NCBI GenBank assembly: GCA_035546615.1
Contig: DASZWM010000007.1
Span: 1-64,000 of the forward strand
Direction of reading: 5' to 3'
Length of the DNA: 64,000 nt
From: Minisyncoccota bacterium
GTDB taxonomy: Bacteria > Patescibacteriota > Minisyncoccia > Phycocordibacterales > SBAW01
In this document: positions 1-55,676 of the stretch, one piece after another
Layout: every line of letters starts with the position of its first letter
Position numbering within the stretch: the first letter of the stretch is position 1
Program-made: the position numbers and the translations under genes
Notes under the pieces: generated by a model
Database searches by the model: none
Told to the model about the DNA's origin: nothing
What the model saw: the letters and a program-made list of their open reading frames with translations, nothing else

Positions 1-3000
1 GTTAATGGTCGAGATGGCGGTAATGCCGCTGGTCCTTGCAGCCTGGAGCGCCTCGGCCGGAACGTTCGTGCCGATACCGACATTACCCGCGATATATGCA
101 TTGCCGGTGGTCGTTGCGCCTCCATATATAGTGAGTCCCCCAGCCTGCGTTCCGTTGCCGATGGTTGAGGAAGCGTTTACTTGGATGCCGATGGTCGTGG
201 TCGGCGTAAGCGCGCCTGCCACGATCTTCCAGTCGCGGAACGCGTTGGCGTAGTAATTTTCTGAGGTAGTGCTGAAAGCAAGACCCTGCGACGCCCAGTA
301 GTTGGCGCTCGTGGTGGAGAAGAAGTTGTTTTGAGACTGCCAGTAGTTTGCAGAAGTGGTGCTGAAGGAATTCGCGAGGTAGAACGAGCCTTCGTTGCCG
401 TCGAGGGTGCCGGTCCAGTCGCCGGTGCGGTCCAGCGTGAGCGCGCCCCCGACGTTGGTGAGGCCGCTGCCGGTGAGGTCGGAGAAGTACTCGCTGTTGA
501 GGCCAAGGATGGACGTATATATAGAAGAGGAGGTGGCATTTGTGAGGGTAGTGTTGCCGTTAAAGCGGTTGGTGCCGCTGAAGGTGTTGTTGTCGGCAAG
601 GAGGGTCGACGAGGCGAACGTCCAGGTAGAGGTGGAGAAGGTGTAGAGCGTGCCGTTGGATGTGACGCCGAGGGCGCCATTTGCGTAGTTGGAGAGCTGC
701 ACCGTTCCGGTGGCAGTAAGGCTGCCGCCGAGGTACGTGTTGCCGCCGACCGAGAGCCGGGCGAACGGGCTGGTGGTGCCGATGCCGAGGTTGCCATTTC
801 CGTCCACGCGAGCGCGCTCAATGTTATTGGTACCGATCACGAACGGCTGCGCCGTAAGGGTGCCCACGTAGTAGCCGAGGTTCGAAGCGCCGTCGGCGAA
901 CATGAACAAGCGGTCCGCGCGCGGCGCGCCGAAGAGGCTGCCGAGGCTGCTTGAGGAACCGCCATAGAGGAAACCGCCGTACGATGCGAATGAACCGCGA
1001 TCGTTCTCAAGGTAGAACGACGCCTGATTGCTTGCGCTCGTGCCCTGGAAGTACGCGTTGTAATAGCCGGGATTCTTAACGCTGAGCGGGAATCCGGTCG
1101 TGGTATAAGAAGCCTGGATATCGAGCCGGGCGCTCGGCGACTGCGTGCCGATGCCGACGTTGCCCGCGATATACGCGTTCCCCGTCGTCGTCGCCGAGCC
1201 ATTTACCGTAAGGCCGAGCGTGCCGTTGCCGATGGTCGAGCTTGCATTAACGATGATGCCGAGCGTCGTGGTCGGCACGAGCGCGCCGTTGACTATCTTC
1301 CAGTCGCGGAAGGCATTGGCGTAGTAATTCTCAGACGTGGTCGAGAAGGCGAGGCCCTGAGATGAGAAGTAGGAAGCGGACGTGGTCGAGAAGAAGTTGT
1401 TCTGCGTCTTCCAGTAGTCGGCGCTAGTCGTGGAGAAGAAGTAGCCCTTATCGAAGAGGCTAAGGAAGTAGGTAGCCGATGTGGTCGAGAACGCGTTGCC
1501 CTGGTTCTGGCTCAAGAAGTAGACGGCCGAGGTAGTACTGAAGCTGTTGGCAAGATAGTACGAGCCTTCCTGTCCATCGAAGGTACCGGTCCAGTCGCCG
1601 GTGCGGTCCAAAGTGAGAACGCCACCAACGTTGGACAAGCCCGAGCCAGTTAGGTCGGTAAAGGTCTCGTTGTTGATGCCGAAGGAAGTGGTGGTTGCGT
1701 TAGTGGAGAGCAGGTTCGGGAGGACGTTCTGTGCCGAGGTGGTGGCAATATAGTTTGCCGCAACTACCTGGCCGACTACCGAGAGCTTGCTGTACGGCGA
1801 GGTGGTGCCGATGCCGAAGTTGCCGGCAGGTGCGATGACGTTATTAGAAGAGCCGACGGCGAGGTAGAGGTCATTAAGGCCGCCCGGGGTATAGATACCG
1901 GCATCGCTTGAACCGTCGACGTTGGTAGTGACGTGCGCGTCGCGGTTAAGCGTGATGCCGGAGGTGAAGTAACCATATCCGCCGCTTACTTGCAGGGCGG
2001 CAAGCGGATTGCTGGTGCCGATGCCAACGTTGCCGCTAAAATATGCGCGGCCAGTTGTGGTCGCCGGGCCGTTGACCGTAAGGCCGAGCGTGCCGTTGCC
2101 GATGGTCGAAGAAGCATTTACCTGGATGCCGAGAGTTGTTGTAGGCGTGAGCGCGCCTGCAACTATCTTCCAGTCGCGGAACGTGTTGGCATAGTAGTTC
2201 TGTGAAGTAGTGCTGAACGCGTTGCCCTGGTTGACAGAGAGGAAGTATGCGGCCGAAGTAGTAGAGAACGCCTGGCCCTGATTTTGCGCGAGGAAGTACA
2301 AAGCGCTGGTGGTCGAGAAGAAGTAGCCCTTGTCGAAGAGGCCGAGCGTCGTGGTGGAGAGGCGCGAGTTGAACGAGTTCCAATCGCTTGATGAGAGGTA
2401 GCCGTCGGTAGAAGCGCCCGACTGGCTGATGGTAAACACGCCGGTCGACGGGTTGTACGAGAGCGGGCCGGTTGCCGAGAGCGAGGTCGAGGAGATCTTG
2501 TTGTTGAAGGTGGTCCAGTCAGTGCTTGAGAGATAGCCGTTCTGCGCGCCGTTGGCCTGCTGGATGGACAAGGTATTGCCGGAGAAGGAGAGCGGACTCG
2601 AGACCGTGGTCGAGATGACGGAACCGTTTGCATTTGTGGAGAGAAGAGTGTTCAGGAGGCTGGTGATGGCGAGATTGGTCGTTGTCGCCTGCTGGGTCGT
2701 AAAATTGCCGCTCGCGTCGATCCTGGTCAAGACCGTGCCGGCGTTATTGAGGAACTGCGCCAAGTCCGCGGTCTGGGCCGAAGCGCCCTGTACCGTAAAG
2801 ACCTTCTTCGCGGCGCTTGAGTTAATGAGGCCGAAGAGCGATATAGGCACCGTCGTATTGGTCCAATTGAGGTCGGTTATCTGGGTCGAAGACGCATTGA
2901 ACTGCAGGCGGTTGAGCTGGGTGTCCGCGCCGTAGGTGCCGCCCATGAAGGTCGCGTTATTGTTGCTCGCGTTCGTTATCTGGAAGTACGTGGTCGAGGT

Positions 3001-6000
3001 CGCCGTGGCGCCGCCGCCCGTCCAGCCCCCGCTGTTATACACAACGCGCAGTTGGCCGCCGCCGCCCACGACATTGTCGCCCTTGAGGATGACGCCGTTG
3101 CCGGAGGTCTGGTTGTAGATGGTCGGGTTCGCGCCGACGGAGTTAAGCGTAAGCGTGTTGTTTGTAGAGTCGAATGCAAAGTCGGAATCATCGGTTATCT
3201 GGCTGCCTGCGCCGATAAAAGGCACGCGGCCGGCAGTGAGGCTCGTAACCCGCAGATTAGTGGTTGTCGCGGTGCCGTTTACCGTTAGGCCGCCGCCCGC
3301 CGCGCCGTTGCCAATCGTTGAGCTTCCGAAGACGCCGATGGATTGCACCGTCGAGCTTGGCGTGAGGAAGGCTGTAGCGCCGGAACCAACGATCTTCCAG
3401 TCACGGAACGCGTTGGCGTAGTAGTCCTGGGATGTGGTCGAGAATGCGCCGCCGGTCGAGGCCCAGTAATTTGCGGATGTGGTCGAGAAGAAGTAGCCCT
3501 TGTCGAAGAGAGCGAGCGTCGAAGTGGAGAGGCGCGAGTTGAAGGTGTTCCAGTCGGTCGACGAGAGATAGCCGTCGGTCGAGCCGCCGGACTGGCTGAT
3601 AGAGAACACGCCGGTTGAGACATTGTACGAAAGCGGGCCGGTCGCGGAGATAGAGGTGGAGCCGAGCAGGCCCAGCGTGTTGGTTGCAGTAAGGCTGTAG
3701 CCGCCGGTGCTGTTGCCTACCAGAATATTTCCGTACGAAGGAGCGGCCGAAAGTCCGGTGCCGCCGTACATGACGCCGAGCGATGAGGTTGCAACCACCG
3801 AGCCCTGCGCGTTGGTGGTAAGGAGCGCGGAGCGCACGCCGAGGATAGCCAGGCCGGTGGTCGTGGCGGTCGTCGTGGTGGAGTAGCGGCCGACGAAGTC
3901 GGTGAGCGTCGTGGTGCCCAAGACCGCGAGGCCGCCGCGGGAGAAGATGCCCGAGATGCCGACATTAATGCCCCCCTGCGCGTATATGTCGCCGCCGACA
4001 TTGAGGTTGTCGGCAATGTTCGCAACGCCGACCTCAAGCGAGCCGATGTTGGCGGCCGGGAGCTTCGCGCCGTTTATATCGACCACCTTCACCGTACTGC
4101 TGTTGCTGGTGACGTAGGCGTATTTGCCCGAGAGGCTCAGGCCGCGCGGGTTGCCGCCGGTCGCGAACGTGCCGACCGAAGTGATGCTCGCGAGGTTGTG
4201 CACGTCGAGCACGACGAGGTTGCCGGACGTGTCGGTAACGTACGCGTAGTCGCCGGCCGCCTCAACCGTGTAGTAGCCGGTGCCGGTCTTGGAGCCCGCC
4301 AGGCTGATGGAGGCCGGGTTGCTTATGTCGAGCACGTAGAGGCCGCCGGAAGCGTCCGCAACATAGAGGTAGCGGCCGGACGCGTACAAGGTCGCCGGAA
4401 CGCTCAGGCCGGTGTAGCTGTATACGGCCGTCGGGCTTGCCGGGTTGCTGATGTCGACGGAAGTGACGGAGCCGTTGTAGATGGAGCCCACGTACAGGTA
4501 CTTGCCCTGCACCGCGACCGAAGACCCCGAGCCGATAGGCGTGCCGGGGGACGAGTACTGGCCCACGATAACGGGCGCCGCCGGGTTGGCGATGTCGACG
4601 ATGTTGACCATGCCGGTGTCGAGGTTCGGCGCGTAGAGGTAGCGGCCGGAGAGCGCGAGCGAAATAGGATGGCCCGCGCCGGAGAGCGTGGAAACGAGGG
4701 TCGGTACCGCCGGGTTGGAGACGTCGATGATAACGAGACCCGCGGACGCGTCGCCGACGTACGCGTACTTGCCGGAGACTACGATGCTCTGCGCTTGGGT
4801 GGTGCCCGTGTAGGAGCCGACGAGCTTGGGGTTGCCCGGCTGGGTGATGTCGAGGATGCGCACGTTTCCGGCGGCAACGTAGGAGTAATGGCCGGAAGTG
4901 TTGATGCCGTATGAAGTCCCGCCGACTAAGGTCGAGGTCGCCAGGGTCGGCGTGCCGCTTGCCACCTGGAGTATATTGCCGCCCGCGACGGTGAGCTTCT
5001 GGGAAGGCGACGTGGTGCCGAAGCCGGCGAGACCGCCGAAGGACGCGATGCCCGAGTTGTAGAAGCCGGTCGTGGTGGCGTTGTCGATGGTCGCGCCTCC
5101 GACCACTTCGAGCTTGGAGAGCGTCGAGGTCGAGGTAAAGCCGATGAGCACCTGGTCGGTCGCGGTCGTCAGGCGGATGCCCGAGCCGTTGAAGTGGGTC
5201 CAGTTGACGTCCGAGCCGGACGCGCCCGCGTCGGTGCCGCACTGGAATTGTCCGGTCGCGGAGTTCCATAGGAGCTTGTCGACCGAGCCGGAGCAGGAAG
5301 AGAGGTTGGCGCCGGTTATCCTGCCGTTTATGTACAGGTTCGTCGTGGTCGAAGTGCCGCTCGTAATGACATCGCCCGGGAAGGTATACACGCTCGAGGA
5401 ATTGCCGCCGAAGGTTCCCGCCTGCGTGGTGATGACGCCGGTGGATGAGGTGTACGAGATGACCGACTGGCCCGAGAGGCTGGTCGAGGAGATCTTGTTG
5501 TTGAAGACGCTCCAGTCGGTATTTGTCAGGAAGCCCGGCTGGGAAGCGTTGGCCTTTTGAGCGCCGGCGTAGTCGATGGAGATAAGGCCGGCGCCGTTAT
5601 CGTTGAAGTCGGACGAAGCGAAGGATGCGGCGCCCTTAGTGCTGCCGTCTGCCTTCGCGTCCTGAATGGAGAACGTGCCGGAGCTTGGGTTGTAGAACAG
5701 CGGCGCGGTGGCGTTGAGCGAGCCGGTCGTAACGAGGCCGAGGCTCGAGGTCGAGGTAAGCGTGTACGTACCATTGCTGTTGCCCACCAAAAGGTTTCCG
5801 TAGCTCGGAGGGGTCGAGAGTCCCGTGCCGCCGTAGATGACCGAGAGCGTCGACGTTGCCGACACGGCGCCGTTAATGGCCTGCAGGGGTCCGGTGATGT
5901 TGGAGATGGTTACGCCGCCGTTGAATGTGTTGCTGTTCGTAAACGTATTGCTGGAGTAGGTCTTCGGAATCGTGCTTGATGCGTCGACGAAATGGATAGC

Positions 6001-9000
6001 CGACGTGGTTGAGAAGAAATTGTTCTGCGTCTTCCAGTAGTCGGCCGAACTGGTCGAGAAGCCGACGAGCGTCTGCTGGGAGAGGAAGTAAAGGGCTGAT
6101 GTCGTGGAGAACGCCTGACCCTGATTGACAGAGAGGAAATATGAAGCAGAAGTCGTGGAGAAGAAATTATTCTGCGTCTTCCAGTAATCGGCCGAGGTGG
6201 TGGAGAACGAGTTCGCGAGGTAGTACGAGCCTTCCTGGCCGTCCAGCGTGCCCGTCCAGTCGCCCGCGCGGTCGAGCGTCAATGCGCCGCCGACATTCAG
6301 GAGGCCGGAGCCGGTGAGGTCGGTGAAGTACTCGGAGTTGAGACCCAGTATCGCGGAGTACAGCGAGGTAGAGGTCGCGTTGGTGGTGGTGCCGAAGGTA
6401 ACGGTGAGAGCGGAAATGGTCGACGACGAGTATGCGGTGAGGCCTGCGCCGAACTGCTGCAAGGCGGCCCAGGTATTCGAGTTCGAGAGGTTAAGGCCCC
6501 AATCGCTTATCCCCGCGCTGCCGTCATAGCTTGAGCCGGCGAGCGTCGCGTTGTGGGAAAGCGCGCTGAGGCTGGTGCCGAGCTGCTTGCCGCTGATGGT
6601 CGAGTTAGTAAGTCCCGCGTTATCGAGCGTGCCGGAAAGCGTAGGGGCGAACGTGAATGCGCCGCCCGTGTTCGTTATCCTGATGCCGAGAGTCTGCCCG
6701 TTCTGCGTGAGCGTCGAGGTGGAAAGCGTAAGCGCGCCCGTCTGCGCCGTGCCGCCGCCGGTCTGCGAAAGCGACAGGACGCCGGTGTTTGAGATGACGC
6801 CCGTTGCGGGAACATAGCTGATGCCCGTACCCGCCGAGAGAGAAGTGGAGCCGAGCAGGCCCAGTGTGTTCGTGGCGGAGAGCGCGTAGCCGCCGGTGCC
6901 GTTCCCTACCAGAATGTTTCCGTACGACGGCGCTGCGGTCAGCCCCGTGCCTCCGTACAGGACGCCGACGGAAGAGGTTGCGGAAACTACGCCATTGATC
7001 GCCTGGAGCGGGCCGGTGAGGTTGGAGATAGTTACGCCGCCGTTGAAGGTATTGGAATTCGTGAACGTGTTGGCGGTGTAGGTCTTCGGGATGGTCGTGG
7101 AAGACGTAACGAACCACATAGCGGAAGTGGTGGAGAAGAAGTTATTCTGCGTCTTCCAATAGTCTGCAGAGGTAGTCGAGAACGCAAGATTCTGGTTATT
7201 TGCTAGGAAGTAGAGGGCGGAGGTGGTGCTGAAGGCATTGCCCTGGTTCTGCGAGAGGAAGTATGCGGCGCTGGTGGTCGAGAAGAAATAGCCCTTGTCG
7301 AAGAGGCCGAGGGTGGAGGTGGAAAGGCGGCTGTTGAAGGAATTCCAGTCCGTGCTTGAGAGATAGCCGTCGGTCGAGCCGCCGGACTGGCTGATAGTGA
7401 AAATACCGGTCGAAGAGTTATAGGCGAGCGGCGCAAGTGCCGAGAGGCTGGCCGGGGTAAGGAAGCCGAGGCTGGATGTCGGCGCAAGGTCGTAGCCGCC
7501 TGCGCTGTTGCCCAGGAGCACCTGGCCGTAGGCCGGAGCGAGCGTGAGGCCGGTGCCGCCGTACACGACACCGATGCTCGTAGTTGCCGACACGAGGCCG
7601 TTAATAGCCTGCAGCGGCCCGGTGAGATTGGAAACGTACAGCGAGTCGATGGTTGCGAGCGTTGTCGACGAAGTAAGGACGCGCGTGCTGGTGGCGAAGA
7701 AGCTGCTTGAGGTCGCGTTGGTAAACTTTGCCGTTGAGGGGGTCGTGGCGCCGATAGGCGTGCTGTTTATCGTGCCGTTCGAAATAGTGAGGTTGTCGGC
7801 TACGTACGCGTCGGCTACGATGCTGCCGTGCCAAACGCCGGTCGAGACGGTTCCGACGTTGGAGGAGCCGAGCACCGTCAGCGTGGTGAAGACCGCGCCC
7901 GGCGCGTTGAGCGTCGTGCCGTCGAAGGTGAAGGTATTGTCCCCGACGACCGCGTCTTCCGCCTGGTTGGTGAAGAATATCTGTCCTGCAACGTACGTAT
8001 CCGGCGCATCAGTGAGCCCGAGGAACGTGGTTGAGCCGCCTCCGCCGCCGGTGCCGCAGTCGCTGCCGGTGCCCGACACCACGCCCGCCGCGTTGACGCG
8101 CAAGCACTGCGTCGTACCGGTAATGGAGCCGAGCGTAAGTCCGCCCCCGAGCGTGAGCGCGCCGGTCGATGAGAACGTCGAGGTCGCCGTCGCGCCGAAG
8201 GAGGCCGACTGGTAGACCGAGAGCTTCGACGTGGAAGCCGCGTTGAACTGCTGGAGCTGGGACCAGGCGTTTGCGGTAGTGGTGCCGAAGGCGAGGCTGA
8301 ACTGTCCGGTGGTCTGGTTGTACTGGACCGGGTACGAACCGGAGATGCTGGTGGTGCCGAGCTTGCCGTTGAAAAGGGTCCAATCGCTCGAGGAAAGATA
8401 TCCGTTCGTTGAGCCGTTAGCCTGCGCGATGGAGAACACGCCGGTGTTCCCGTCGTACGAAAGCGGCGCGAGCGCGGAAAGCGACGATGTGGAGAGCAGG
8501 CCGTTGGCGGCGGCAAAGTAGCTTGCGGAAGTCGTGGAGAAGAAATTGCTGACCGACTTCCAGTACTCCGCGGAGGTGGTGCTGAAGGCATTGCCCTGGT
8601 TCTGCGAGAGGAAATACGCGGCCGAAGTTGTCGAGAACGCGTTGCCCTGGTTCTGGGCGAGGAAGTATGCGACGCTGGTGGTTGAGAAGAAATTATTCTG
8701 CGTCTTCCAGTAGTCAGTCGAGGTGGTCGAGAAGAAATTGCTGACAGACTTCCAGTACTCAGCGGATGTCGTGGAGAAGCCGGTCGAGGTGCCGCCGAAC
8801 ATGATGCCGAGGCTGGAGGTCGAGACGAGGTCGTAGCCGCCGGTTGCGTTTCCGACAAGCACCTGGCCGTAGGCCGGCGCGGTCGTCGTGCCGGTGCCGC
8901 CGTTTGCAACGCCGAGCGTGCCGCCGAGCACCAAAGTACCCGAGGACGTGATGGGGCCGCCCGTGAAGGAGAGCCCGGTGGTGCCGCCGTTGGCTGCAAC

Positions 9001-10629
9001 CGATGTTACCGAGCCGCCGCCCGAGCCGCCCAGGCCCAGAGTCGAGGTTGAGGTTACAGCCCACTTCACGCCGTCCCACACCAGCACGTCGCCGAACGCG
9101 CCGCCGCCGATGTGCGGCACCGTTGAGGAAGCGGAGATGTACGCGCCGACAGCATAGTTGCTGGAAGTGGTGGAGAAGAAGTCGCGAGCCGTCTTCCAGT
9201 AGTCGGCGGAGGTGGTGGAAAATCCGCTAAGGCTCTGAAGCGAGAGGAAGTATGCCGCTGAGGTTGTAGAAAATGCCTGGCCCTGATTTTGGCTGAGGAA
9301 GTACGCGGCGGAGCTGGTCGAGAAGAAGTAGCCCTTGCCGATGGAGTCGAGATACGCCTGCGCGTTCTGCGGCGTGAAGTACAGGTTGGTGGCGCCTTCG
9401 TCGAGGCCGTCGGTCGTGGTCGCGTACCACGCGGAGAGCGACAGCTTCGAGTCAAGCGCGTTCTGGAGATCGGTTTGGTTGGAAAGCGTGCCGACGATAT
9501 TGCCCCACGACGGATTGCCGCCCGCGGCGATGCCGAGCGTCGAGGTGGAAACCAGGTCGTAGCCGCCCATGGAATTGCCGAGAAGGAGCTGGCCGTAGGT
9601 CGGGGCAGTGGAAGTGCCGGTGCCGCCGTTTATCGCATTGAGCACGCCGGAGAGCGTGAACGTGCCGGTCGACGTGATAGGCCCGCCGAGGAAGGAGAGG
9701 CCGGTCGTGCCGCCGCTTGCGTCAACCGACGTTACCGAGCCGTTCCCGCCGCCCGAATTGCCGCCGCCGTTGTGGCTGTGCGAAGGGTTCGGCGAAAGCG
9801 CCGCGGCCTCTATTTTCGGGAGAAGGAAATTCTGCAGCGCGAGCAGGCGGAGGTTGAGTATGTCTTCGGTGACGCCGGAACCCTGCACCAGACGCTCGGT
9901 AACCGGATAGGTGTTGTAGACCGGGTACGAGTTCTGGACGATCGTCGTGGTCGCGGTGCCTGCGGCGACCGGAGCAGACGGGCCGTACGCCGGCGAGGTC
10001 TGCGTGCCCGCCGCATACTGCGCGGGAACGCGCGGGCCGAAGAGGAACGAAAATACCTGCGAGAAGACATCGGACGCGACAGACGGCGATGACTTCGCCG
10101 GAAGGGAGAATCCGAACTGGAGCGGATGCGCCCCGAAGAACGGCGACTCCACCTGCGCGAGCGACGCCGCAAGCGTGGTCTGGTTCTGCATCGCGACCTC
10201 GCGCTGGTGCATCGCGCCGGCGTACGCTACGGCGCCGAAGAGCAGCATGCCCCCCAGCGCCATCACCGCGTTGCGCGCCAGAAGCGAAGAGAAGCGCGAG
10301 GCGACGCCGTTCGCGGAAGGAACGGCGTCGGCCTCAACCGCCTTCTTCGCAGGCAGGCCGTTTGCCTTGCGGTACGTCTCGTTCTCAAGCTTGCGCTCCT
10401 TCGCTAACGCAGACGCGCGCTCAAGCTTTGCCTGAGCGCGCGCCGCCTCGAATTCTCCAAGGGACTTCTCCTCGACGAACCATGCGCCGTTTATCTGCGA
10501 GCCGCGCAGCTTGCCGTCGCGCAAAAGGCGGCCGACATAGTCCTGAGCGCAGTTCATCCGCTTGGCGGCAGAACGGGCCGAGAGCATCGGTTCGCCTGAA
10601 TTTGAGATGATTTGTTTAGCGGGTGACAT
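1..10629 (-). CDS. Giant repetitive cell-surface protein, 3' partial (at least 3543 aa in window; stop lies beyond window start). N-terminal HTH_17-like domain, coiled segment, single TM helix, then Gly/Ser/Thr-rich repeats, FSTTSA-type 16-aa tandem repeats and a 7-blade LVIVD beta-propeller. Alternative start ATG 10587.
   Basis: Revcomp of 1-60 gives ...GIGTNVPAEALQAARTSGITAISTIN, revcomp of 4981-5040 gives ...SFGGLAGFGTTSPSQKLTVAGG, and the ATG at 10629 is in frame with the codon ending at nt 1 (10629 = 3 x 3543). No listed ORF on either strand in 1-10600 carries the FSTTSA repeats, so the true frame is uninterrupted and lacks an in-window stop. All listed ORFs here are Ser/Thr/Pro/Arg-rich alternative-frame artefacts. 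Confidence 0.8.
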   Translation of the reverse strand, partial: MSPAKQIISNSGEPMLSARSAAKRMNCAQDYVGRLLRDGKLRGSQINGAWFVEEKSLGEFEAARAQAKLERASALAKERKLENETYRKANGLPAKKAVEADAVPSANGVASRFSSLLARNAVMALGGMLLFGAVAYAGAMHQREVAMQNQTTLAASLAQVESPFFGAHPLQFGFSLPAKSSPSVASDVFSQVFSFLFGPRVPAQYAAGTQTSPAYGPSAPVAAGTATTTIVQNSYPVYNTYPVTERLVQGSGVTEDILNLRLLALQNFLLPKIEAAALSPNPSHSHNGGGNSGGGNGSVTSVDASGGTTGLSFLGGPITSTGTFTLSGVLNAINGGTGTSTAPTYGQLLLGNSMGGYDLVSTSTLGIAAGGNPSWGNIVGTLSNQTDLQNALDSKLSLSAWYATTTDGLDEGATNLYFTPQNAQAYLDSIGKGYFFSTSSAAYFLSQNQGQAFSTTSAAYFLSLQSLSGFSTTSADYWKTARDFFSTTSSNYAVGAYISASSTVPHIGGGAFGDVLVWDGVKWAVTSTSTLGLGGSGGGSVTSVAANGGTTGLSFTGGPITSSGTLVLGGTLGVANGGTGTTTAPAYGQVLVGNATGGYDLVSTSSLGIMFGGTSTGFSTTSAEYWKSVSNFFSTTSTDYWKTQNNFFSTTSVAYFLAQNQGNAFSTTSAAYFLSQNQGNAFSTTSAEYWKSVSNFFSTTSASYFAAANGLLSTSSLSALAPLSYDGNTGVFSIAQANGSTNGYLSSSDWTLFNGKLGTTSISGSYPVQYNQTTGQFSLAFGTTTANAWSQLQQFNAASTSKLSVYQSASFGATATSTFSSTGALTLGGGLTLGSITGTTQCLRVNAAGVVSGTGSDCGTGGGGGSTTFLGLTDAPDTYVAGQIFFTNQAEDAVVGDNTFTFDGTTLNAPGAVFTTLTVLGSSNVGTVSTGVWHGSIVADAYVADNLTISNGTINSTPIGATTPSTAKFTNATSSSFFATSTRVLTSSTTLATIDSLYVSNLTGPLQAINGLVSATTSIGVVYGGTGLTLAPAYGQVLLGNSAGGYDLAPTSSLGFLTPASLSALAPLAYNSSTGIFTISQSGGSTDGYLSSTDWNSFNSRLSTSTLGLFDKGYFFSTTSAAYFLSQNQGNAFSTTSALYFLANNQNLAFSTTSADYWKTQNNFFSTTSAMWFVTSSTTIPKTYTANTFTNSNTFNGGVTISNLTGPLQAINGVVSATSSVGVLYGGTGLTAAPSYGNILVGNGTGGYALSATNTLGLLGSTSLSAGTGISYVPATGVISNTGVLSLSQTGGGTAQTGALTLSTSTLTQNGQTLGIRITNTGGAFTFAPTLSGTLDNAGLTNSTISGKQLGTSLSALSHNATLAGSSYDGSAGISDWGLNLSNSNTWAALQQFGAGLTAYSSSTISALTVTFGTTTNATSTSLYSAILGLNSEYFTDLTGSGLLNVGGALTLDRAGDWTGTLDGQEGSYYLANSFSTTSADYWKTQNNFFSTTSASYFLSVNQGQAFSTTSALYFLSQQTLVGFSTSSADYWKTQNNFFSTTSAIHFVDASSTIPKTYSSNTFTNSNTFNGGVTISNITGPLQAINGAVSATSTLSVIYGGTGLSTPPSYGNLLVGNSNGTYTLTSTSSLGLVTTGSLNATAPLFYNPSSGTFSIQDAKADGSTKGAASFASSDFNDNGAGLISIDYAGAQKANASQPGFLTNTDWSVFNNKISSTSLSGQSVISYTSSTGVITTQAGTFGGNSSSVYTFPGDVITSGTSTTTNLYINGRITGANLSSCSGSVDKLLWNSATGQFQCGTDAGASGSDVNWTHFNGSGIRLTTATDQVLIGFTSTSTLSKLEVVGGATIDNATTTGFYNSGIASFGGLAGFGTTSPSQKLTVAGGNILQVASGTPTLATSTLVGGTSYGINTSGHYSYVAAGNVRILDITQPGNPKLVGSYTGTTQAQSIVVSGKYAYVGDASAGLVIIDVSNPAVPTLVSTLSGAGHPISLALSGRYLYAPNLDTGMVNIVDIANPAAPVIVGQYSSPGTPIGSGSSVAVQGKYLYVGSIYNGSVTSVDISNPASPTAVYSYTGLSVPATLYASGRYLYVADASGGLYVLDISNPASISLAGSKTGTGYYTVEAAGDYAYVTDTSGNLVVLDVHNLASITSVGTFATGGNPRGLSLSGKYAYVTSNSSTVKVVDINGAKLPAANIGSLEVGVANIADNLNVGGDIYAQGGINVGISGIFSRGGLAVLGTTTLTDFVGRYSTTTTATTTGLAILGVRSALLTTNAQGSVVATSSLGVMYGGTGLSAAPSYGNILVGNSTGGYSLTATNTLGLLGSTSISATGPLSYNVSTGVFSISQSGGSTDGYLSSTDWNTFNSRLSTSTLALFDKGYFFSTTSANYWASTGGAFSTTSQDYYANAFRDWKIVGSGATAFLTPSSTVQSIGVFGSSTIGNGAAGGGLTVNGTATTTNLRVTSLTAGRVPFIGAGSQITDDSDFAFDSTNNTLTLNSVGANPTIYNQTSGNGVILKGDNVVGGGGQLRVVYNSGGWTGGGATATSTTYFQITNASNNNATFMGGTYGADTQLNRLQFNASSTQITDLNWTNTTVPISLFGLINSSAAKKVFTVQGASAQTADLAQFLNNAGTVLTRIDASGNFTTQQATTTNLAITSLLNTLLSTNANGSVISTTVSSPLSFSGNTLSIQQANGAQNGYLSSTDWTTFNNKISSTSLSATGPLSYNPSTGVFTISQSGASTDGYLSSSDWNSFNSRLSTTTLGLFDKGYFFSTTSALYFLAQNQGQAFSTTSAAYFLSVNQGNAFSTTSQNYYANTFRDWKIVAGALTPTTTLGIQVNASSTIGNGTLGLTVNGPATTTGRAYFSGNVGIGTSNPLAALQVSGGYGYFTSGITLNRDAHVTTNVDGSSDAGIYTPGGLNDLYLAVGSSNNVIAPAGNFGIGTTSPYSKLSVVGQVVAANYIATTSAQNVLPNLLSTNATTTSFGINNETFTDLTGSGLSNVGGVLTLDRTGDWTGTFDGQEGSYYLANSFSTTSAVYFLSQNQGNAFSTTSATYFLSLFDKGYFFSTTSADYWKTQNNFFSTTSASYFSSQGLAFSTTSENYYANAFRDWKIVNGALVPTTTLGIIVNASSTIGNGTLGLTVNGSATTTGNAYIAGNVGIGTQSPSARLDIQASYTTTGFPLSVKNPGYYNAYFQGTSASNQASFYLENDRGSFASYGGFLYGGSSSSLGSLFGAPRADRLFMFADGASNLGYYVGTLTAQPFVIGTNNIERARVDGNGNLGIGTTSPFARLSVGGNTYLGGSLTATGTVQLSNYANGALGVTSNGTLYTFSTSTWTFASSTLLADNNTFSGTNRFNGNTTLTNATSSSIYTSILGLNSEYFSDLTGSGLTNVGGALTLDRTGDWTGTLDGNEGSFYLANSFSTTSANYWQSQNNFFSTTSANYWASQGLAFSTTSENYYANAFRDWKIVAGALTPTTTIGIQVNASSTIGNGTQAGGLTIYGGATTTGNAYIAGNVGIGTNVPAEALQAARTSGITAISTIN

Positions 10630-10966
10630 GTTGCCGAAAAAACTTTTGTTTGTGCGGAGAGTTCGGGTATTTCGTGTTTCAACAGAAGAGGTAGCGACCC
10701 GCCGATGTGCCGCTACCCTGTTACTAATTATTTTACGCGAGTGTCGCGCTTTTTCCGTCTATAATATGCGAAGAAAAATGTGGATATCTTATTGCACTGC
10801 AACGGAATTTTGAAAATTTATTTTCAAAAAATAATCAGCTTAAAATGAGTTTGCTGTTTAAAATTCCATGAAAAAATATTCGGCTTACATACCCTTTTCT
10901 CGTCTTAAAAATTGTATAGGAGAGATATGTTGTAATCAAAAGCTACATCGGCTCTCCCATACGATA

Positions 10967-10997
10967 TCTCGGATAACTTCTCGGCTAATCTCGGATA
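10967..10997 (-). promoter_or_regulatory. Three direct repeats TCTCGG(A/C)TA spaced 12 and 10 bp (one helical turn), in the AT-rich region upstream of the giant gene; candidate transcription-factor binding sites
   Basis: tctcggata (10967), tctcggcta (10979), tctcggata (10989), read directly from sequence; sits in the 500-bp low-GC intergenic region 10630-11138. Confidence 0.3.
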
Positions 10998-11065
10998 GCT
11001 TCATAATGCTATTTTACCTCCTAAGTATGCCGGAGGGGCAAAAAACCAAGTTCTAGTATTAAAAA

Positions 11066-11099
11066 CGGCGTCTTTTGACAAGTTGTCAAACTGACGCCG
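11066..11099 (-). terminator. Rho-independent terminator of the 11139-11978 gene. Imperfect 16/17-bp stem cggcgtcttttgacaa / ttgtcaaactgacgccg with a TTGACAA-G-TTGTCAA core, followed on the minus strand by TTTTT
   Basis: Inverted repeat read from sequence; T-run is the revcomp of aaaaa at 11061-11065; located 40 nt after the stop at 11139. Confidence 0.55.
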
Positions 11100-11138
11100 A
11101 ATACTAAATAAAATATGAATTCGAAAATCTGACGCGAT

Positions 11139-13501: not shown

Positions 13502-15601
13502 TTACTGCCCCAGCAGATAGAGCTGCCTGACCTCCGCAGCCGGGAGCGCGCGGTTGTAGACGCGCACATCGTCGAGCTTGCCGTTGAAGGTATACATAGC
13601 CCCGCTTCCGTTTCCCATGCTGCCGATATATGTATTAAAAGAAGCGGGCGTACCGGGATCGGTGGTCTGCGCGGAGGAAGCATCGAGGGAGCCGTTGATG
13701 TATATTTTCTTTGTCGCCCCGTCGTAGGTAAAGACGACATGCGTCCATGTAGAAGTCGCTATCGTAGCGGCGGATACGATCTGGCTCAGCGAACTGTTCC
13801 AAATGCCTCCCGAGACCTTTCCTGCTTGTATGTACATATCTATGCCTTTGTACGTGCCGCAGCAGTCCCGGGCGTTGCTGTACACGTAGTTGTATAGATA
13901 GGTCTGAGGAGTATTGTCGTATATCCATGCGGAAATAGTAAATCGGCTCGGGGTCAGCGAATTGCTGCTGCCCACATTTATTCCGCCGGTATTCATCCCG
14001 CTAAAACTGAACCCCTGTCCCATCCTGCCTATCGTCTTGCGGCTCGAAGTGGCGTTGTTGGTACCGACTAAGTATCCATTAAAACCACTCCCCGAACGGT
14101 CGTACACCTTGTCGGTTACGTCCGGCCCGTCGAAGGTCCAGAGGCCGACCAGCCCGCTTGAGAGGCTGCTGTCGGAAGACAAGTCGGGTGAAGGCGTATT
14201 TATCTGTGCGGTACCCTGCCTATATAAGGCCGCTATTTCCGCCGCCGAGAGCGCGCGGTCGTAGATGCGCACATCGTCCATGAGGCCGCCGAAGAACGAG
14301 GCGGAAGGATTGATATTGGCGTCCTTGCCGATAAAGAGGACGCTCGGTGCTGTGAGCGACTGGGTCCCCCCGGTACCCGTGTTGTCAAGAACCCCGTTCA
14401 CGTACACTGTCATGGCGCCGGTCGATTTGACGCGGGTCGCGGTTACGAGCACCCAATTGCCTGTGTTAACATCGGCATTCGAGAATACGGTCGTATCAGA
14501 GTTACCGACGCCGAAAGCAAGTTTGCCGTTATAAACCGTCATGCCGAAGTCGTTCGTTACGCCCCCGACTTCGCCGTCTACTATCCCCTGCCCGCAGTAC
14601 CATTGCCCTGCGCAGCCCGCGGTATTCTGCGTCGTCTTTATCCATGCGGAGAGCGTGAAGTCGTCCGATACGGTGCGATTGACGGGTATATAGCTGGTGC
14701 TCCCGTCGAACAAGAGCGCCTTGCCGTGCTTTCCGCTTGCCCAGGCCGGAAGCGTCGAGCCGGAGAGCGTCCCGTCGTTGCTATTGCCGCTTGAGTCCCC
14801 CGCAATAGTACCCGTACCCTCGTTGAAGTCCCACGAGCCGACGAGGCCGACGTTGTTAGGCGCGCGCACCTGCGCCGCCCCGCCCCTGTACAGAGCGACG
14901 ATTTCCGCATCCGACAACGCGCGATTGTAGAAACGGAAATCATCAATCGTCCCGACGGTAGGCTCGCCGCCCGAATACTTTCCCAATATCCAGGAAGACT
15001 TCGCAATGCTGGTGGTGTCTGTCTGGGCGCTTCCCAGTGACGCGCCATTCACAAAAACGGACACATTCGAGCCGCTTCTCTTTGCAACAATGTTGTACCA
15101 AACGCCTGCCGCGGGGGTAAACGGCCAGCTGAGCGTATGAGGCCCGGAAGGCGTTCCCCGTATGTATAGCATCACCACATGCGCCGTATTATCGAACTCG
15201 ATCAATACTCCGGCGGTTCCCGCATATCCGCCGTCAAATGTCGTCTGGTAGCGCGCGGGGAAGCCGTCGAACCTGATCCAATGAGAAATAGTAAAATCTC
15301 CCGTTCCTATCTGGAATGCGTCGCTGACCGGGATGCTTACGTAATTGTCGCTGTTCGTGAATGAAAGGCCCTTGCTGAACCTGCCCGTAACCCATGTTGG
15401 CAGCGTGGTGCCCGAGAGCGTGCCTATGTGGCCGTTCCCGCTCAAATCGCCCAGCTTAGTTCCCGAGGCGTCGTTGAAGCTCCAGTACGCTATGAGCCCT
15501 AAATTATTCGCGGGTTTGGCAAGCGCGGCGGCCTGCGCGGCGGCGGGCAGAAAAAATGCCGCGAATATGAAACATATCGCGATGCCGGGAAATACCCTCA
15601 T
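13502..15601 (-). CDS. Secreted protein with signal peptide and three tandem LamG-like (concanavalin A-like lectin/glucanase, Laminin_G_3) domains
   Basis: Signal peptide MRVFPGIAICFIFAAFFLPAAAQAAA. Three repeats begin with LxxxWxFxxxxGxxxxDxSGxGxxGTL and end with IDDFRFYNRALSDAEIVALY / MDDVRIYDRALSAAEIAALY / LDDVRVYNRALPAAEVRQLY. Confidence 0.7.
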   Translation of the reverse strand: MRVFPGIAICFIFAAFFLPAAAQAAALAKPANNLGLIAYWSFNDASGTKLGDLSGNGHIGTLSGTTLPTWVTGRFSKGLSFTNSDNYVSIPVSDAFQIGTGDFTISHWIRFDGFPARYQTTFDGGYAGTAGVLIEFDNTAHVVMLYIRGTPSGPHTLSWPFTPAAGVWYNIVAKRSGSNVSVFVNGASLGSAQTDTTSIAKSSWILGKYSGGEPTVGTIDDFRFYNRALSDAEIVALYRGGAAQVRAPNNVGLVGSWDFNEGTGTIAGDSSGNSNDGTLSGSTLPAWASGKHGKALLFDGSTSYIPVNRTVSDDFTLSAWIKTTQNTAGCAGQWYCGQGIVDGEVGGVTNDFGMTVYNGKLAFGVGNSDTTVFSNADVNTGNWVLVTATRVKSTGAMTVYVNGVLDNTGTGGTQSLTAPSVLFIGKDANINPSASFFGGLMDDVRIYDRALSAAEIAALYRQGTAQINTPSPDLSSDSSLSSGLVGLWTFDGPDVTDKVYDRSGSGFNGYLVGTNNATSSRKTIGRMGQGFSFSGMNTGGINVGSSNSLTPSRFTISAWIYDNTPQTYLYNYVYSNARDCCGTYKGIDMYIQAGKVSGGIWNSSLSQIVSAATIATSTWTHVVFTYDGATKKIYINGSLDASSAQTTDPGTPASFNTYIGSMGNGSGAMYTFNGKLDDVRVYNRALPAAEVRQLYLLGQ

Positions 15602-23039: not shown

Positions 23040-25319
23040 TTATTGTCCAGGTTTTAGAGTGCCGTTCTTTATATTCGTGATAAGCCCCTGCACCTGTCCC
23101 GCCGCCGCGGGATTGAGCCTGATGACCTCTTCGAGCTCGGCGATGGTCTCGGCGGTCTTCCCTGCGGTGAAGTACGCGGAGGCGAGCTGCACGTGCATAT
23201 TGGCGTCGTTCGGATTCTTCGCGACCCGAGCCTGCCAGACGGCGACGATGCGGCCGTACTGCTTGGTGTCGGTATATATCTGGAGGAGCTGGTCGTTATC
23301 GACCGCCGTGGTGCCGTACGCCTGCATAAGCAGCGCATCGGCTGCGGCGTTCTGGCCGGCGTAGTACAGGGCGCCGGCGTAGGCGATGCGCGCCTGCTCG
23401 TAATCGGGCGATAGGTCGAAGGCTTTCTTGAAGGCGGCCAGGCCGTTGCTCAAATCGCCCTTCTGTATATAGGTCTGGCCCTCTTGGAAGAGGATCTGCT
23501 GCTTGCCCGGCGAGAGCTTCGCGGCCGTAGCCAAATGCTTAAGCGCATCGTCGTACTGGCCGTACTGGGTCAGGAACAGGCTGTCGAACAACTCAAGGCG
23601 CGCGTCATTCTTACGCTGAGCAAGCATCGCGTCTCCCGCGGCGCGCGTATAGGCGTATACGGTTTGGGTCAGCTCCGGGCTCGCGCCGGAAGAAGCCTGC
23701 CGCAGGCCGTTTGCGAACTGGAAGAGCTGTTCCGTGGTTTCCTGCCGGCCGAGCTCGGCCCCGTCGTCGAGTGCCGCCTTGAAGGAGGCGAACCGCTTGT
23801 CCGGCGTGCGCGGCGCGCCCGTGGGCTCGTTCGTCTGCAGGCCGTCGATAATGGTCTGCGCGCGCGCCATGCCGCCGGCGTTGAGCATCCACGCTCCGCC
23901 GAGCACCAGCACGGCCACAAGCGGCGCGACTATGGCGACCGTATGGTCATTAACGGGCCTGAGCCAGAACATCCACCGCGGCAGCGCCTTCCACGAAAGC
24001 ACGTGGAGGTACGCCAGCAGCAGGAAGAAGTACGCGATGCTCAAAAGGTTGTCGAACACGAACAGGTTGTTGAAGGCGTAGGCCGCCAGAAGGCCCAGCA
24101 ATACGGCCTGCTCGGGGCTGGTAAGCTCAGCCGAGCGGAGTATCGCCCACACGCCAAGCCCGAACAGCGATATGTACAAAAGGAGCGCCGGAACGCCGCC
24201 GGCGACGAACCAGTCGAGAAATTCGTTGTGCGCGCGGTCGAACCACTGCTCCTGCGCCCACATGGCCGGATTGTAATGCTCGTTGAATATGTAGCTGAAG
24301 TTCTCCTGGCCCCAGCCGGTAACCGGCTTCTCGAGCGCGCCCTGCACGGCCATAGGCCATATATAGAAGAGGCGGGCCTTGGTCGTGCCGTCCTCAAGCG
24401 ATATAGACGCGAGGCGTCCGAGGCCGGGAGAGTTGCGGACGAAGTCCGTATCCTTCACCGCGATGAAGAGCGCCGCGCATATCGCGATGACGCCAAGCGC
24501 TCCCCATGACGCGCGGCGAAGCGTCCTGTACTGCTCTTCCCTGGCGCGCAGCGCCACGTATACGGCGGCCACGATAAGCCCGCCCACAAAGCCCAAAAGC
24601 GCGCCGCGGGTCTCGGTAAAGTAGAGCGCCGGCAACTCGAGCAGGAGCGCGATGCCGTAGAGCGTCAATGCGGTCGGCGACCTGCGGTCGCGCACCATCA
24701 TATAGAGCGTCAGGAAGAGGTTGAGCAGCATGAACACGGCCAGGTACGTCGCGTTGCCGAAGCTGGTATCGGCGCGCACGCCGGACTGGGTCGAGGGCGA
24801 CAGGCCGAACAGGTGGAACACCTGGAAAAGCGCGTAGATGCCTTGCGTTGCTGCTACCGCTATAGAGATGCGGAAGAACGCGTCCCACCAGCGCGACGCG
24901 TTGAATACTGCGCCGGCCACCACGAACAGCGCGAACAGGTGTATGACGGTAATGTAGCCGTCCATGCGCTCGAAGTTGCTCCAGAAGCTCTTTATCGGGT
25001 CGACGCTCAGCGCGGTCGCAAGAGCCATCCACAGCACGAACGCGCCGGCGGCCCACATAAGGTACGAGGCCTTGGGGCGGTATGCCGGCTCCTTTATCGC
25101 GAGTATGGCGTACAGCAGGACGATAAGCTCGACGAGCAGGCGGAACACGAAGTTCTTGCCCGTAATGTACGGGAAGTACATGGCCGGCACCCAGCCGCTG
25201 CCGGCGACGATAAAGGAGATGCACGGGACGGCGCACAGCCCGCCGATAATAGCCCAGCGCAGATAGGTGGTATACGACATACGCGACACTATACCACAAC
25301 ACAGGCCGCCGATCCCCAA
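23040..25319 (-). CDS. O-antigen ligase family (Wzy_C-like) polytopic membrane protein with C-terminal TPR repeats
   Basis: About 12 TM helices in the first 450 aa, then TPR-like repeats (LAAFKKAFDLSPDYEQARIAYAGALYYAGQ...). Start may be internal (MSYTTYL). Confidence 0.7.
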   Translation of the reverse strand: MGIGGLCCGIVSRMSYTTYLRWAIIGGLCAVPCISFIVAGSGWVPAMYFPYITGKNFVFRLLVELIVLLYAILAIKEPAYRPKASYLMWAAGAFVLWMALATALSVDPIKSFWSNFERMDGYITVIHLFALFVVAGAVFNASRWWDAFFRISIAVAATQGIYALFQVFHLFGLSPSTQSGVRADTSFGNATYLAVFMLLNLFLTLYMMVRDRRSPTALTLYGIALLLELPALYFTETRGALLGFVGGLIVAAVYVALRAREEQYRTLRRASWGALGVIAICAALFIAVKDTDFVRNSPGLGRLASISLEDGTTKARLFYIWPMAVQGALEKPVTGWGQENFSYIFNEHYNPAMWAQEQWFDRAHNEFLDWFVAGGVPALLLYISLFGLGVWAILRSAELTSPEQAVLLGLLAAYAFNNLFVFDNLLSIAYFFLLLAYLHVLSWKALPRWMFWLRPVNDHTVAIVAPLVAVLVLGGAWMLNAGGMARAQTIIDGLQTNEPTGAPRTPDKRFASFKAALDDGAELGRQETTEQLFQFANGLRQASSGASPELTQTVYAYTRAAGDAMLAQRKNDARLELFDSLFLTQYGQYDDALKHLATAAKLSPGKQQILFQEGQTYIQKGDLSNGLAAFKKAFDLSPDYEQARIAYAGALYYAGQNAAADALLMQAYGTTAVDNDQLLQIYTDTKQYGRIVAVWQARVAKNPNDANMHVQLASAYFTAGKTAETIAELEEVIRLNPAAAGQVQGLITNIKNGTLKPGQ

Positions 25320-53038: not shown

Positions 53039-53748
53039 GGCACTATCTCGAATTCGTCGCCGGGCTGCGGCTTTTGCGGCGTGAGCGCGCGCTTTTGCAT
53101 GCGGGCCCACAGCGCTCCGGCGGTACCCAGCGCCATGACAGCCGCCGCGCCCGCGCCCCACACCAGCAGGGGCGGAAGCTGCGCCGATCCGGCCGCGGCC
53201 GCAAGCTCTTCCGGTTCGGTATAGGAAAGCTCGCCCGGATTCGCTGCAGAACCGGCCGCTGGCGTCTTCGCTTTTGCGGTGGAAGTTTTTGAAGCGGCCG
53301 GCTTTTTTGCGGCAGGCGCGGGCTTCGGCTTGGGTGCTGCGGTATACGACATGGAGTACTCAGTTTTCCCGGAGGCATTCACAAGGGCGAGCGTCTCCCC
53401 TTCGTTTGAAAGCGAGAACGAGCTCTTGAATACGCTGCGGGTCTCCCCGGGATGCTCGCTCAAGTAGGTCGTCGGATCTTCCGCGATTACCGCCGACGCC
53501 CCGGGCGAGAGCGTGGCGCTTCCGGCAGCCGCGGTCAGCTTGTGATTGACGCCTCCTTCGAGGAACTTGTATTTTGAAATATCGACGCTGTCCTTCCCTT
53601 TGTTGGCTATCTCGACCCACTCGCGCCCGTCGTCGCTGCCCGGCAGGTCGTACTCGACATGCGTGATTTCAACGGCCGCAAAGGCGCTCGCAGGGAGCGC
53701 TAGAAATGCGAATAGAAGAAAAAGGCGGAGGCTAGTGTTTGCGCGCAT
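53035..53748 (-). CDS. Lamin-tail-domain (LTD) surface protein: signal peptide, LTD, Ala/Pro/Lys-rich linker, C-terminal TM anchor
   Basis: MRANTSLRLFLLFAFLALPASAFA; VEITHVEYDLPGSDDGREWVEIANKG...GETLALVNASG (LTD); C-term LPPLLVWGAGAAAVMALGTAGALWA. Confidence 0.7.
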   Translation of the reverse strand: MRANTSLRLFLLFAFLALPASAFAAVEITHVEYDLPGSDDGREWVEIANKGKDSVDISKYKFLEGGVNHKLTAAAGSATLSPGASAVIAEDPTTYLSEHPGETRSVFKSSFSLSNEGETLALVNASGKTEYSMSYTAAPKPKPAPAAKKPAASKTSTAKAKTPAAGSAANPGELSYTEPEELAAAAGSAQLPPLLVWGAGAAAVMALGTAGALWARMQKRALTPQKPQPGDEFEIVP

Positions 53749-55663: not shown

Positions 55664-55676
55664 TGGATAAAGTATA

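Follow-up and report, generated by a model that had tools for sequence, protein, structure and literature searches.

A giant repeat-built protein with a predicted winged-helix membrane anchor in a Candidatus Paceibacterota bacterium: a candidate host-attachment fibre

The DNA analysed here, called the window throughout, is a stretch of 64,000 nucleotides (positions 1 to 64,000 of contig DASZWM010000007.1, GenBank assembly GCA_035546615.1) from a bacterium of the Candidatus Paceibacterota (Patescibacteria, or Candidate Phyla Radiation, CPR). Its first 10.6 kb hold the 5' portion of one giant minus-strand gene, which encodes a repeat-built and predicted surface-exposed protein. Translation of the reverse complement of 1-10629, with nt 3-1 as the last codon, gives 3,543 codons with no in-frame stop. 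The frame stays open upstream as far as nt 10758, and the ATG at 10629 is its earliest start codon, a start that is backed by alignment with ortholog N-termini (MSPAKQIISNSGEP in the window, MTPVKKIISNTGEP in the ortholog at related locus L003 and MTHSKRILSPSGEI in homolog P0001). The other two minus-strand frames carry 55 stops apiece over the same interval, which puts the chance probability of a stop-free run of this length at about 1e-24. GC content at third codon positions (GC3) is 0.815, close to that of SecA (0.845) and Obg (0.809) in the same window. A preliminary description, made from the letters of the window, had proposed one long high-GC gene running from this ATG to nt 1, with the compositionally odd short open reading frames (ORFs) of the region as its shadow frames, and both proposals hold: the ORF track across 1-10.6 kb lists alternative-frame ORFs only, of at most 373 aa, rich in Arg/Ser/Pro on the minus strand and in Val/Ala/Gly/Arg on the plus strand. 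The track omits by design ORFs that run off the end of the source and the giant gene has no in-window stop, which explains its absence from the list, as had been presumed. An exhaustive profile search recovers a protein identical to the 3,543-aa fragment, GenBank HVV15503.1 ("hypothetical protein, partial", Candidatus Paceibacterota), from a 65,450-nt contig. Window nt 1 is therefore the contig end, and the gene had already been called as a partial coding sequence; it is missing from the ORF track alone.

Comparison with two orthologs by the Nei-Gojobori method gives dN/dS ratios of 0.12-0.26 across five collinear segments, among them the winged-helix region, the LVIVD block and repeat regions (described below), and these ratios indicate that the gene is real, functional and under purifying selection. 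Within 1-10800 the DNA repeats share only 60-80% identity, apart from a few stretches of 40-49 nt at 88-92%, and are too diverged for assembly collapse; Tandem Repeats Finder reports only two short arrays in the giant-gene region. This divergence, together with the collinearity of independently assembled orthologs, rules out a collapsed-repeat chimera. The GC skew of the plus strand (+0.15 to +0.21 at 1-10000) is limited to the giant gene, the rest of the window being near zero, and mirrors the extreme amino-acid and codon bias of the gene rather than a replication feature.

The preliminary description had the product continuing beyond the window, and the orthologs bear this out. The locus L003, from another Paceibacterota metagenome-assembled genome, holds a complete ORF of 6,790 aa, which matches the window protein at 61% identity over its first 106 residues and has its LVIVD block at the same position, at about aa 1943. 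The last 20 residues of the window fragment are identical to aa 2968-2987 of this ortholog, which continues for 3,803 residues beyond them. The closest relative, at locus L002, shows 70-86% identity; its open frame, cut at the start of the locus, runs to at least 6,975 aa, and aa 3356 of the window protein aligns with aa 3585 of L002. From these two lengths we expect a window protein of about 6,700-7,300 aa, roughly half of which is present. The fragment is collinear with the independently assembled orthologs over the N-terminus and aa 1560-2270, the ortholog LVIVD blocks, collinear as well, scoring 162 and 172 bits. In both full-length relatives a Bact_surface_Ig-like domain (PF16403) forms the C-terminal end, and LVIVD is the only further Pfam domain. 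Open frames of at least 3,000 aa are present in 17 of 72 related loci, many of them cut by contig ends, and many of the family members found in public assemblies stop short at a contig end or have frameshifted tails: giant genes of this kind routinely break assemblies. The same gene was not found in public assemblies, the best matches reaching 83% identity in a scan of species-representative genomes and 70% in a scan of metagenomes. With no second copy in either scan and the contig ending at nt 1, the stop codon of the window copy lies beyond the reach of public data.

The C-terminal halves of the orthologs (about 1-20926 in L002 and 3248-23620 in L003) hold module types missing from the window fragment, among them WTFASSTLL units. 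That of L002 has YadA-head-like S.A.G..A.A.G runs and that of L003 long Gly-rich blocks with a weak Gly_rich_2 match. A DIAELYP...GRVPVKV...GD motif precedes the final Ig-like domain in the orthologs and resembles the auto-chaperone regions of tail fibres; the motif (DIAELYP...GRVPVKV...GD.I) has no Pfam match, and we do not claim this role for it. The closest N-terminal homolog, P0001, lies on a contig (L001; GCA_014379165.1, JACMMG010000006.1) labelled 'Acetobacteraceae bacterium' in GenBank. This contig has 46% GC and Patescibacteria-type synteny (MurB, SecA, DsbD, Obg, GatB, small protein, giant gene), and it is probably mis-binned or mislabelled.

The N-terminus of the giant protein is predicted to combine a winged helix-turn-helix (wHTH), a long charged helix and a single transmembrane (TM) helix. 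The AlphaFold2 (AF2) model has a predicted local distance difference test score (pLDDT) of 96-98 over aa 11-90. Here the modelled chain adopts a beta-alpha-alpha-beta-beta winged-helix fold that superposes on excisionase, BldC or MerR N-terminal domains, and comparison of the predicted structure with known folds returns the DNA binders BldC, Xis, RdfS, TraN, RacA and MerR. The preliminary description expected an HTH_17 domain. At the level of sequence this expectation fails, since HTH_17 (PF12728) scores 18.9-19.2 bits (E 0.0015-0.0019) against a gathering threshold of 27 bits; at the level of fold it stands, the predicted structure being a winged helix of the Xis/MerR class. All seven relatives scanned match HTH_17 (best E 8e-6). 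We regard the HTH_17 signal of the giant protein as consistent but sub-threshold, and the match of its modelled fold as clear. A search of the wHTH profile against PDB sequences gave noise only. Five residues in the second helix and the wing (D30, Y31, L35, R37 and W50) are near-invariant across 62 family members and, with the fold, they mark the wHTH as a putative DNA-binding-type domain.

Only one strongly hydrophobic 19-mer occurs in all 3,543 aa (Kyte-Doolittle 1.8 at aa 116-123), within an AF2 helix that spans aa 106-159. Six Lys/Arg lie in the roughly 30 residues before the TM helix and one after it, a positive-inside bias that indicates an N-in, C-out orientation. The remaining ~3,400 residues would then lie outside the cell, in line with the repetitive surface protein anticipated from the first reading. 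The SPFFGA motif next to the membrane could be a processing or wall-attachment site. In layout alone the protein is ToxR-like and bitopic, with an N-terminal cytoplasmic DNA-binding-type domain, one TM helix and an external domain; it has no match to the OmpR-type Trans_reg_C domain, its fold going to the Xis/MerR class instead.

This anchor belongs to a very large family. Searched exhaustively against sequences clustered at 50% identity, a profile of the wHTH region retrieves 10,485 cluster representatives at E<=1e-3 and 4,065 at E<=1e-10. In the best 152 members, which we examined, the N-terminal wHTH, present once or twice, leads into a TM helix and then an ectodomain of anything from tens of residues to more than 7,000; their median total length is 330 aa, and 11 exceed 2,000 aa. 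In most family proteins, some 300-350 aa long, a tandem pair of wHTH copies and one TM helix precede a short ectodomain whose last residues are ...ELVY.R. Every member with a source name is from Patescibacteria; giant members go under names such as 'tail fiber domain-containing protein', 'trimeric autotransporter adhesin' or 'immunoglobulin-like domain-containing protein'. In the literature we found no description of this family, its repeats or its wHTH-TM anchor: anchor and repeat modules are undescribed, and GenBank has the giant gene only as a partial hypothetical protein.

Past the TM helix the fragment consists of more than 3,400 aa of Thr/Ser/Gly-rich modules. Its composition is 13.9% Thr, 13.5% Ser (some 27% for the two together), 12.6% Gly, 10.0% Ala and 7.3% Asn, with 7.2% for Asp, Glu, Lys and Arg combined and 0.1% Cys. 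The first of two repeat regions is a mosaic of GGTG..P.YG..L.GN, DGYLSS.DW..FN and DLTGSGL..GDWTGT modules and of FSTTS arrays of 15 or 17 residues. In the mosaic as a whole, FDKGYFF is the module type that precedes FSTTS arrays. Recurring FSTTSA repeats had been picked out at first sight; counted as FST[TS]S they number 32, in nine clusters, built from the 15-mer FSTTSADYWKTQNNF and the 17-mer FSTTSAAYFLSQNQGNA. The mosaic is interrupted by an LVIVD block, also foreseen in the preliminary description, with six repeats around aa 1880-2190. PF08309 scores 164.3 bits here (best repeat aa 1945-1980), and the block sits at the same position in L003 and is collinear with that of L002. The second region adds more FSTTS arrays and four FRDWK..SSTIGNG..GNVGIGT units. 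Within it, an insert at aa 2460-2640 with no paralog in the protein and no counterpart in L002 or L003 is a candidate variable domain, and the domain at aa 3160-3300 has homologs that carry tail-fibre-type C-terminal domains (Peptidase_S74 in P0240, K1-lyase_C in P0231). Pfam searches of six sub-segments of the fragment returned nothing beyond LVIVD, and the fragment as a whole yielded no usable match in NCBIfam, PHROGs or PDB sequences. FSTTS arrays occur in 33 of 49 Patescibacteria-labelled loci versus one of 23 others, and the DW..FN module is present in 19 of the 23 non-Patescibacteria loci, being common in Bacteroidota and Ignavibacteriota; the loci were chosen by query-derived patterns, which makes the contrast indicative only. 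On these counts the 15/17-residue FSTTS repeat looks Patescibacteria-specific.

Upstream, an AT-rich gap that we presume to hold the promoter or leader of the giant gene contrasts with an otherwise tightly packed genome. It contains one sigma-70-like match (10939-10911), not above shuffle expectation, and reading of its sequence shows no clear Shine-Dalgarno motif before the ATG at 10629. Beyond it, adjoining the giant gene on the GatB side, lies a small protein with an N-terminal wHTH, an acidic linker of about 170 aa and a C-terminal TM helix. Counterparts are likewise placed in L001 and L003, the order GatB, small wHTH protein, giant gene being kept in both. The small protein might act together with the giant one or regulate it. 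Coordinates are collected in Table 1.

Table 1. Parts of the giant gene and its immediate upstream region (window coordinates; aa numbering from the ATG at 10629)
Feature	Position	Strand	Evidence
Giant gene, 5' portion, 3,543 codons, no stop, cut at contig end	1..10629	-	stop-free frame; GC3 0.815; identity to HVV15503.1; dN/dS 0.12-0.26
Winged helix-turn-helix, aa 11-62, Xis/BldC/MerR class (HTH_17-like), predicted cytoplasmic	10444..10599	-	
Lys/Arg/Glu-rich long alpha-helix after the wHTH, aa 54-90	10360..10470	-	AF2 pLDDT >96; conserved columns in ortholog alignment
Single TM helix (signal-anchor), ~aa 116-140, predicted N-in/C-out	10210..10284	-	hydropathy; AF2 helix; charge bias
SPFFGA motif, aa 162-167, predicted extracellular, just past the TM helix	10129..10146	-	invariant in window protein, P0001, P0079 and L003 ortholog
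Repeat-module region 1, aa 290-1880	4990..9762	-	motif map; self-BLAST copies 30-80% identical; no Pfam match
LVIVD repeat block, aa 1880-2195, six repeats	4045..4992	-	PF08309 164 bits against cut-off 20.2
Repeat-module region 2, aa 2240-3543	1..3912	-	self-BLAST; motif map; Pfam
Unique insert of ~180 aa, aa 2460-2640	2710..3252	-	no self-match; no L002/L003 match at E<1e-5
Domain between two GN(V/L)GIGT motifs, aa 3160-3300	730..1152	-	81-86% identical to L002
AT-rich non-coding gap, 510 nt, presumed promoter/leader of giant gene	10630..11138	.	sequence reading
Small paralog of anchor module, 279 aa, N-terminal wHTH, acidic linker, C-terminal TM helix	11139..11978	-	34% identity to wHTH of giant protein, E 5e-10; 101 bits against family profile

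Several other genes in the window touch on the cell surface. Between GatB and Obg, at 13502-15601 (minus strand), a 699-aa protein carries three Laminin_G_3 (concanavalin-like lectin) domains. It is missing from the otherwise syntenic L001 and is a further candidate for surface binding. A protein with Wzy_C (O-antigen-ligase or PglL-type) and TPR domains at 23040-25319 (minus strand) stands beside a surface-polysaccharide cluster at about 25.6-47 kb, which encodes UDP-glucose dehydrogenase, an epimerase, a Wzt-type ABC ATPase and several glycosyltransferases. The functions of this cluster could include protein O-glycosylation of the Ser/Thr-rich giant protein. Finally, a 651-aa protein at 53732-55687 (minus strand) has a type IV secretion coupling-protein domain of the TrwB/VirD4 type (E 9e-11); it is of interest since type IV secretion is reported to be essential in Saccharibacteria.

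Taken together, we consider it probable that the giant protein is an N-terminally anchored host-attachment fibre. Its fibre or adhesin character is suggested by the low-charge Thr/Ser/Gly composition, the modular architecture, the LVIVD block, the names of relatives and the Peptidase_S74 and K1-lyase_C homologs, and we infer the attachment function from this architecture together with published CPR biology. Giant membrane proteins with a supposed role in host attachment are known from CPR bacteria (PMC8080830), and multiple predicted adhesins are essential for the epibiotic growth of a Saccharibacterium (PMC10633639, PMC11665869). With 3,543 aa and one TM helix, the window protein falls into the loose class of CPR giant membrane proteins (PMC8080830; more than 1,000 aa, membrane-predicted, encoded by Patescibacteria), and the relatives found are overwhelmingly labelled Patescibacteria. 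Giant surface proteins are thus expected in CPR bacteria; what is new here is the cytoplasmic anchor domain of Xis/MerR type and the uncharacterised set of modules.

We propose the following arrangement. The hydrophobic helix at about aa 116-140 would act as a Sec-dependent signal-anchor, leaving the wHTH in the cytoplasm while the rest of the chain is threaded outside. There it would form a very long, probably oligomeric, tail-fibre-like filament on an ultra-small cell and serve as an adhesin for a host or partner cell. FSTTS, GGTG and GNVGIGT modules would build the shaft; candidates for the binding role are the LVIVD block, the non-repeated inserts and the Ig-like domain at the C-terminus. 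The cytoplasmic wHTH might pin the base of the fibre to DNA or to another internal partner, or might report the state of the fibre.

Some of the evidence pulls the other way. Binding activity, localisation and oligomeric state are predictions from sequence. The AF2 model of a body segment (aa 3100-3400, from a 22-sequence alignment) is poor, with a pLDDT of 51, and the case for a fibre shape consequently comes from composition, repeat structure and the way relatives are annotated; the names of these relatives are automatic annotations and not tests. For about 90% of the fragment, Pfam, NCBIfam, PHROGs and PDB sequences offer no match, and the 3' half and stop codon of the window's own copy are absent from public data. 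Finally, we know of no characterised adhesin with a cytoplasmic DNA-binding-type domain, which means that part of the role of the protein may be other than adhesion.

An unlikely alternative takes this last point further and makes signalling or DNA handling, rather than adhesion, the main job of the protein. As a contact sensor, it would register host contact or tension through the ectodomain, and DNA binding by the wHTH would be altered by clustering or by proteolytic release, as in ToxR and CadC; as a tether, it would keep the nucleoid at the site of attachment, in the way that RacA works at the Bacillus cell pole. The winged helix does share its fold with the proven DNA binders listed above, its five key residues are near-invariant across the 62 members compared, an invariant SPFFGA motif lies beside the membrane, and more than 10,000 clusters retain the wHTH-TM unit, for the most part with tiny ectodomains, which implies that the unit has a function of its own. 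However, DNA binding, target site and protease partner are only putative, nothing in the window ties the giant gene to a regulon, and about 7,000 aa would be a lavish size for a sensor in so small a genome; moreover, sensing or tethering is compatible with an adhesin and does not exclude it. A bolder version, which we would call a long shot, sees in the wHTH-TM unit a Patescibacteria-specific device that couples the surface to DNA, contact sensed by the fibre switching genes or holding the nucleoid. A fibre hundreds of nm long would in that case signal through one TM helix to an Xis/BldC-type domain. If true, such coupling would constitute a new class of contact-sensing one-component system and would give a function to more than 10,000 uncharacterised CPR protein clusters. 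It is likewise improbable that the protein is a non-specific, possibly glycosylated coat or spacer, glycocalyx- or S-layer-like, that shields the cell or keeps it at a set distance from others nearby. A Ser+Thr content of about 27% with very low charge would suit a coat, as would the Wzy_C/PglL-type protein and polysaccharide cluster 12-35 kb away and the conserved position beside housekeeping genes. Against this, a single-TM anchor and a 7,000-aa chain suggest few long filaments, S-layer proteins are normally abundant, much smaller and self-assembling, and the non-repeated inserts, shuffled modules and LVIVD-like and Ig-like parts form the pattern of diversifying binding proteins.

The two remaining explanations concern the origin of the gene. 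That it is a phage-derived tail-fibre gene, from a prophage or tailocin at the contig end, we hold to be very improbable. Its modules do resemble tail-fibre proteins, relatives are so annotated, some homologs end in Peptidase_S74 or K1-lyase_C, and tblastn gives weak matches to an uncultured 636-kb phage record and to two Roseobacter phage structural proteins. These three matches are marginal, though, among 50,697 phage records and cover at most 7% of the query; PHROG matches are not above noise (none better than E 0.0018, 19 bits), the neighbours are GatB, Obg, SecA, MurB and DsbD, in the same order in two other genomes, and an N-terminal cytoplasmic domain with a membrane anchor is incompatible with a virion fibre. 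We rejected a prophage tail fibre on this housekeeping context, the membrane anchor and the absence of phage-family matches. Hardly any credence is due to an artefact, be it a collapsed-repeat mis-assembly or a decaying, unexpressed remnant: the contig does break inside the gene, and many public family members are truncated or frameshifted, but 10.6 kb without stops, repeats too diverged to collapse, purifying dN/dS ratios and collinearity with independent orthologs over the N-terminus and aa 1560-2270 all speak against it.

Outside a few cultured Saccharibacteria, little is understood of how ultra-small, host-dependent Patescibacteria recognise and retain their hosts. The window locus falls into a conserved family of predicted surface proteins of some 7,000 residues. 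Their genes, at about 21 kb, take up much of a genome that, going by published CPR genome sizes, is likely to be of about 1 Mb, and for this reason these proteins are prime candidates for host-range determinants. Giant genes break short-read assemblies and stay in databases as partial hypothetical proteins, and are under-counted as a result. The repeat modules of the body have no entry in any domain library, and the wHTH with a TM anchor, an odd feature of the giant protein, is common to thousands of small CPR membrane proteins.

Among known systems, the giant proteins of Vampirococcus lugosii, whose ten longest proteins have 1,392-4,163 aa (PMC8080830), come closest in setting. They too belong to ultra-small, host-dependent Patescibacteria, are very large, membrane-predicted and repeat-rich, and have been proposed to form a fibrous surface and to act in host recognition and attachment. 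They differ in carrying WD40, PKD, integrin, fibronectin and DUF11 domains instead of LVIVD and FSTTS/GGTG/GNVGIGT modules, the window orthologs are about twice as long, and a cytoplasmic wHTH anchor is not reported for them. With phage tail fibres and tailspikes, and with bacterial 'tail fiber domain-containing proteins' (the name given by PGAP to one wHTH-TM family member), the window protein shares modular Thr/Ser/Gly/Asn-rich shafts with short periodic repeats, GNVGIGT-type linkers, and Peptidase_S74 or K1-lyase_C in relatives of one domain. The orthologs themselves have no Peptidase_S74 by Pfam and end in the Ig-like domain instead. Unlike phage fibres, the window protein has no PHROG match, a housekeeping chromosomal context and an N-terminal anchor with a cytoplasmic domain.

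Like the proposed fibre, giant adhesins such as LapA, SiiE and MpIBP, Ebh of S. aureus and the trimeric autotransporter adhesins are megadalton-scale, repeat-built, surface-anchored attachment filaments, with their anchor at the C-terminus and not, as in the window protein, at the N-terminus. Ebh resembles the window protein in being held by a single TM helix. Going by published CPR biology, the organism would have a monoderm-type envelope, a further difference from these adhesins. Membership in the trimeric autotransporter, RTX/BAP or LPXTG adhesins was rejected, as the defining domains are absent from both the fragment and the full-length orthologs: a YadA-type barrel anchor is missing from the complete L003 protein and from that of L002, in which Pfam finds LVIVD and Bact_surface_Ig-like only (the name 'trimeric autotransporter adhesin' that JGI gives to relative P0102 is an automatic label); HemolysinCabind or a related RTX match is absent by Pfam from fragment and orthologs; and the ortholog C-termini (...GDIGTTTPQQ, ...GEGTTTPAE) have no LPXTG sorting signal and no Gram_pos_anchor match.

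In its anchor the window protein resembles RacA, in which the same wHTH fold is joined to a long helix and which fastens DNA to a site on the membrane. What sets the window protein apart from Xis, BldC, RacA, TraN and MerR proteins is the fusion of its wHTH, via a TM helix, to a giant extracellular chain. It shares with ToxR, CadC and TcpP the order of an N-terminal cytoplasmic DNA-binding-type domain, a single TM helix and an extracytoplasmic domain; where those regulators combine an OmpR-type winged helix with a small periplasmic sensor, the window protein combines a predicted winged helix of Xis/MerR type with an ectodomain of thousands of residues.

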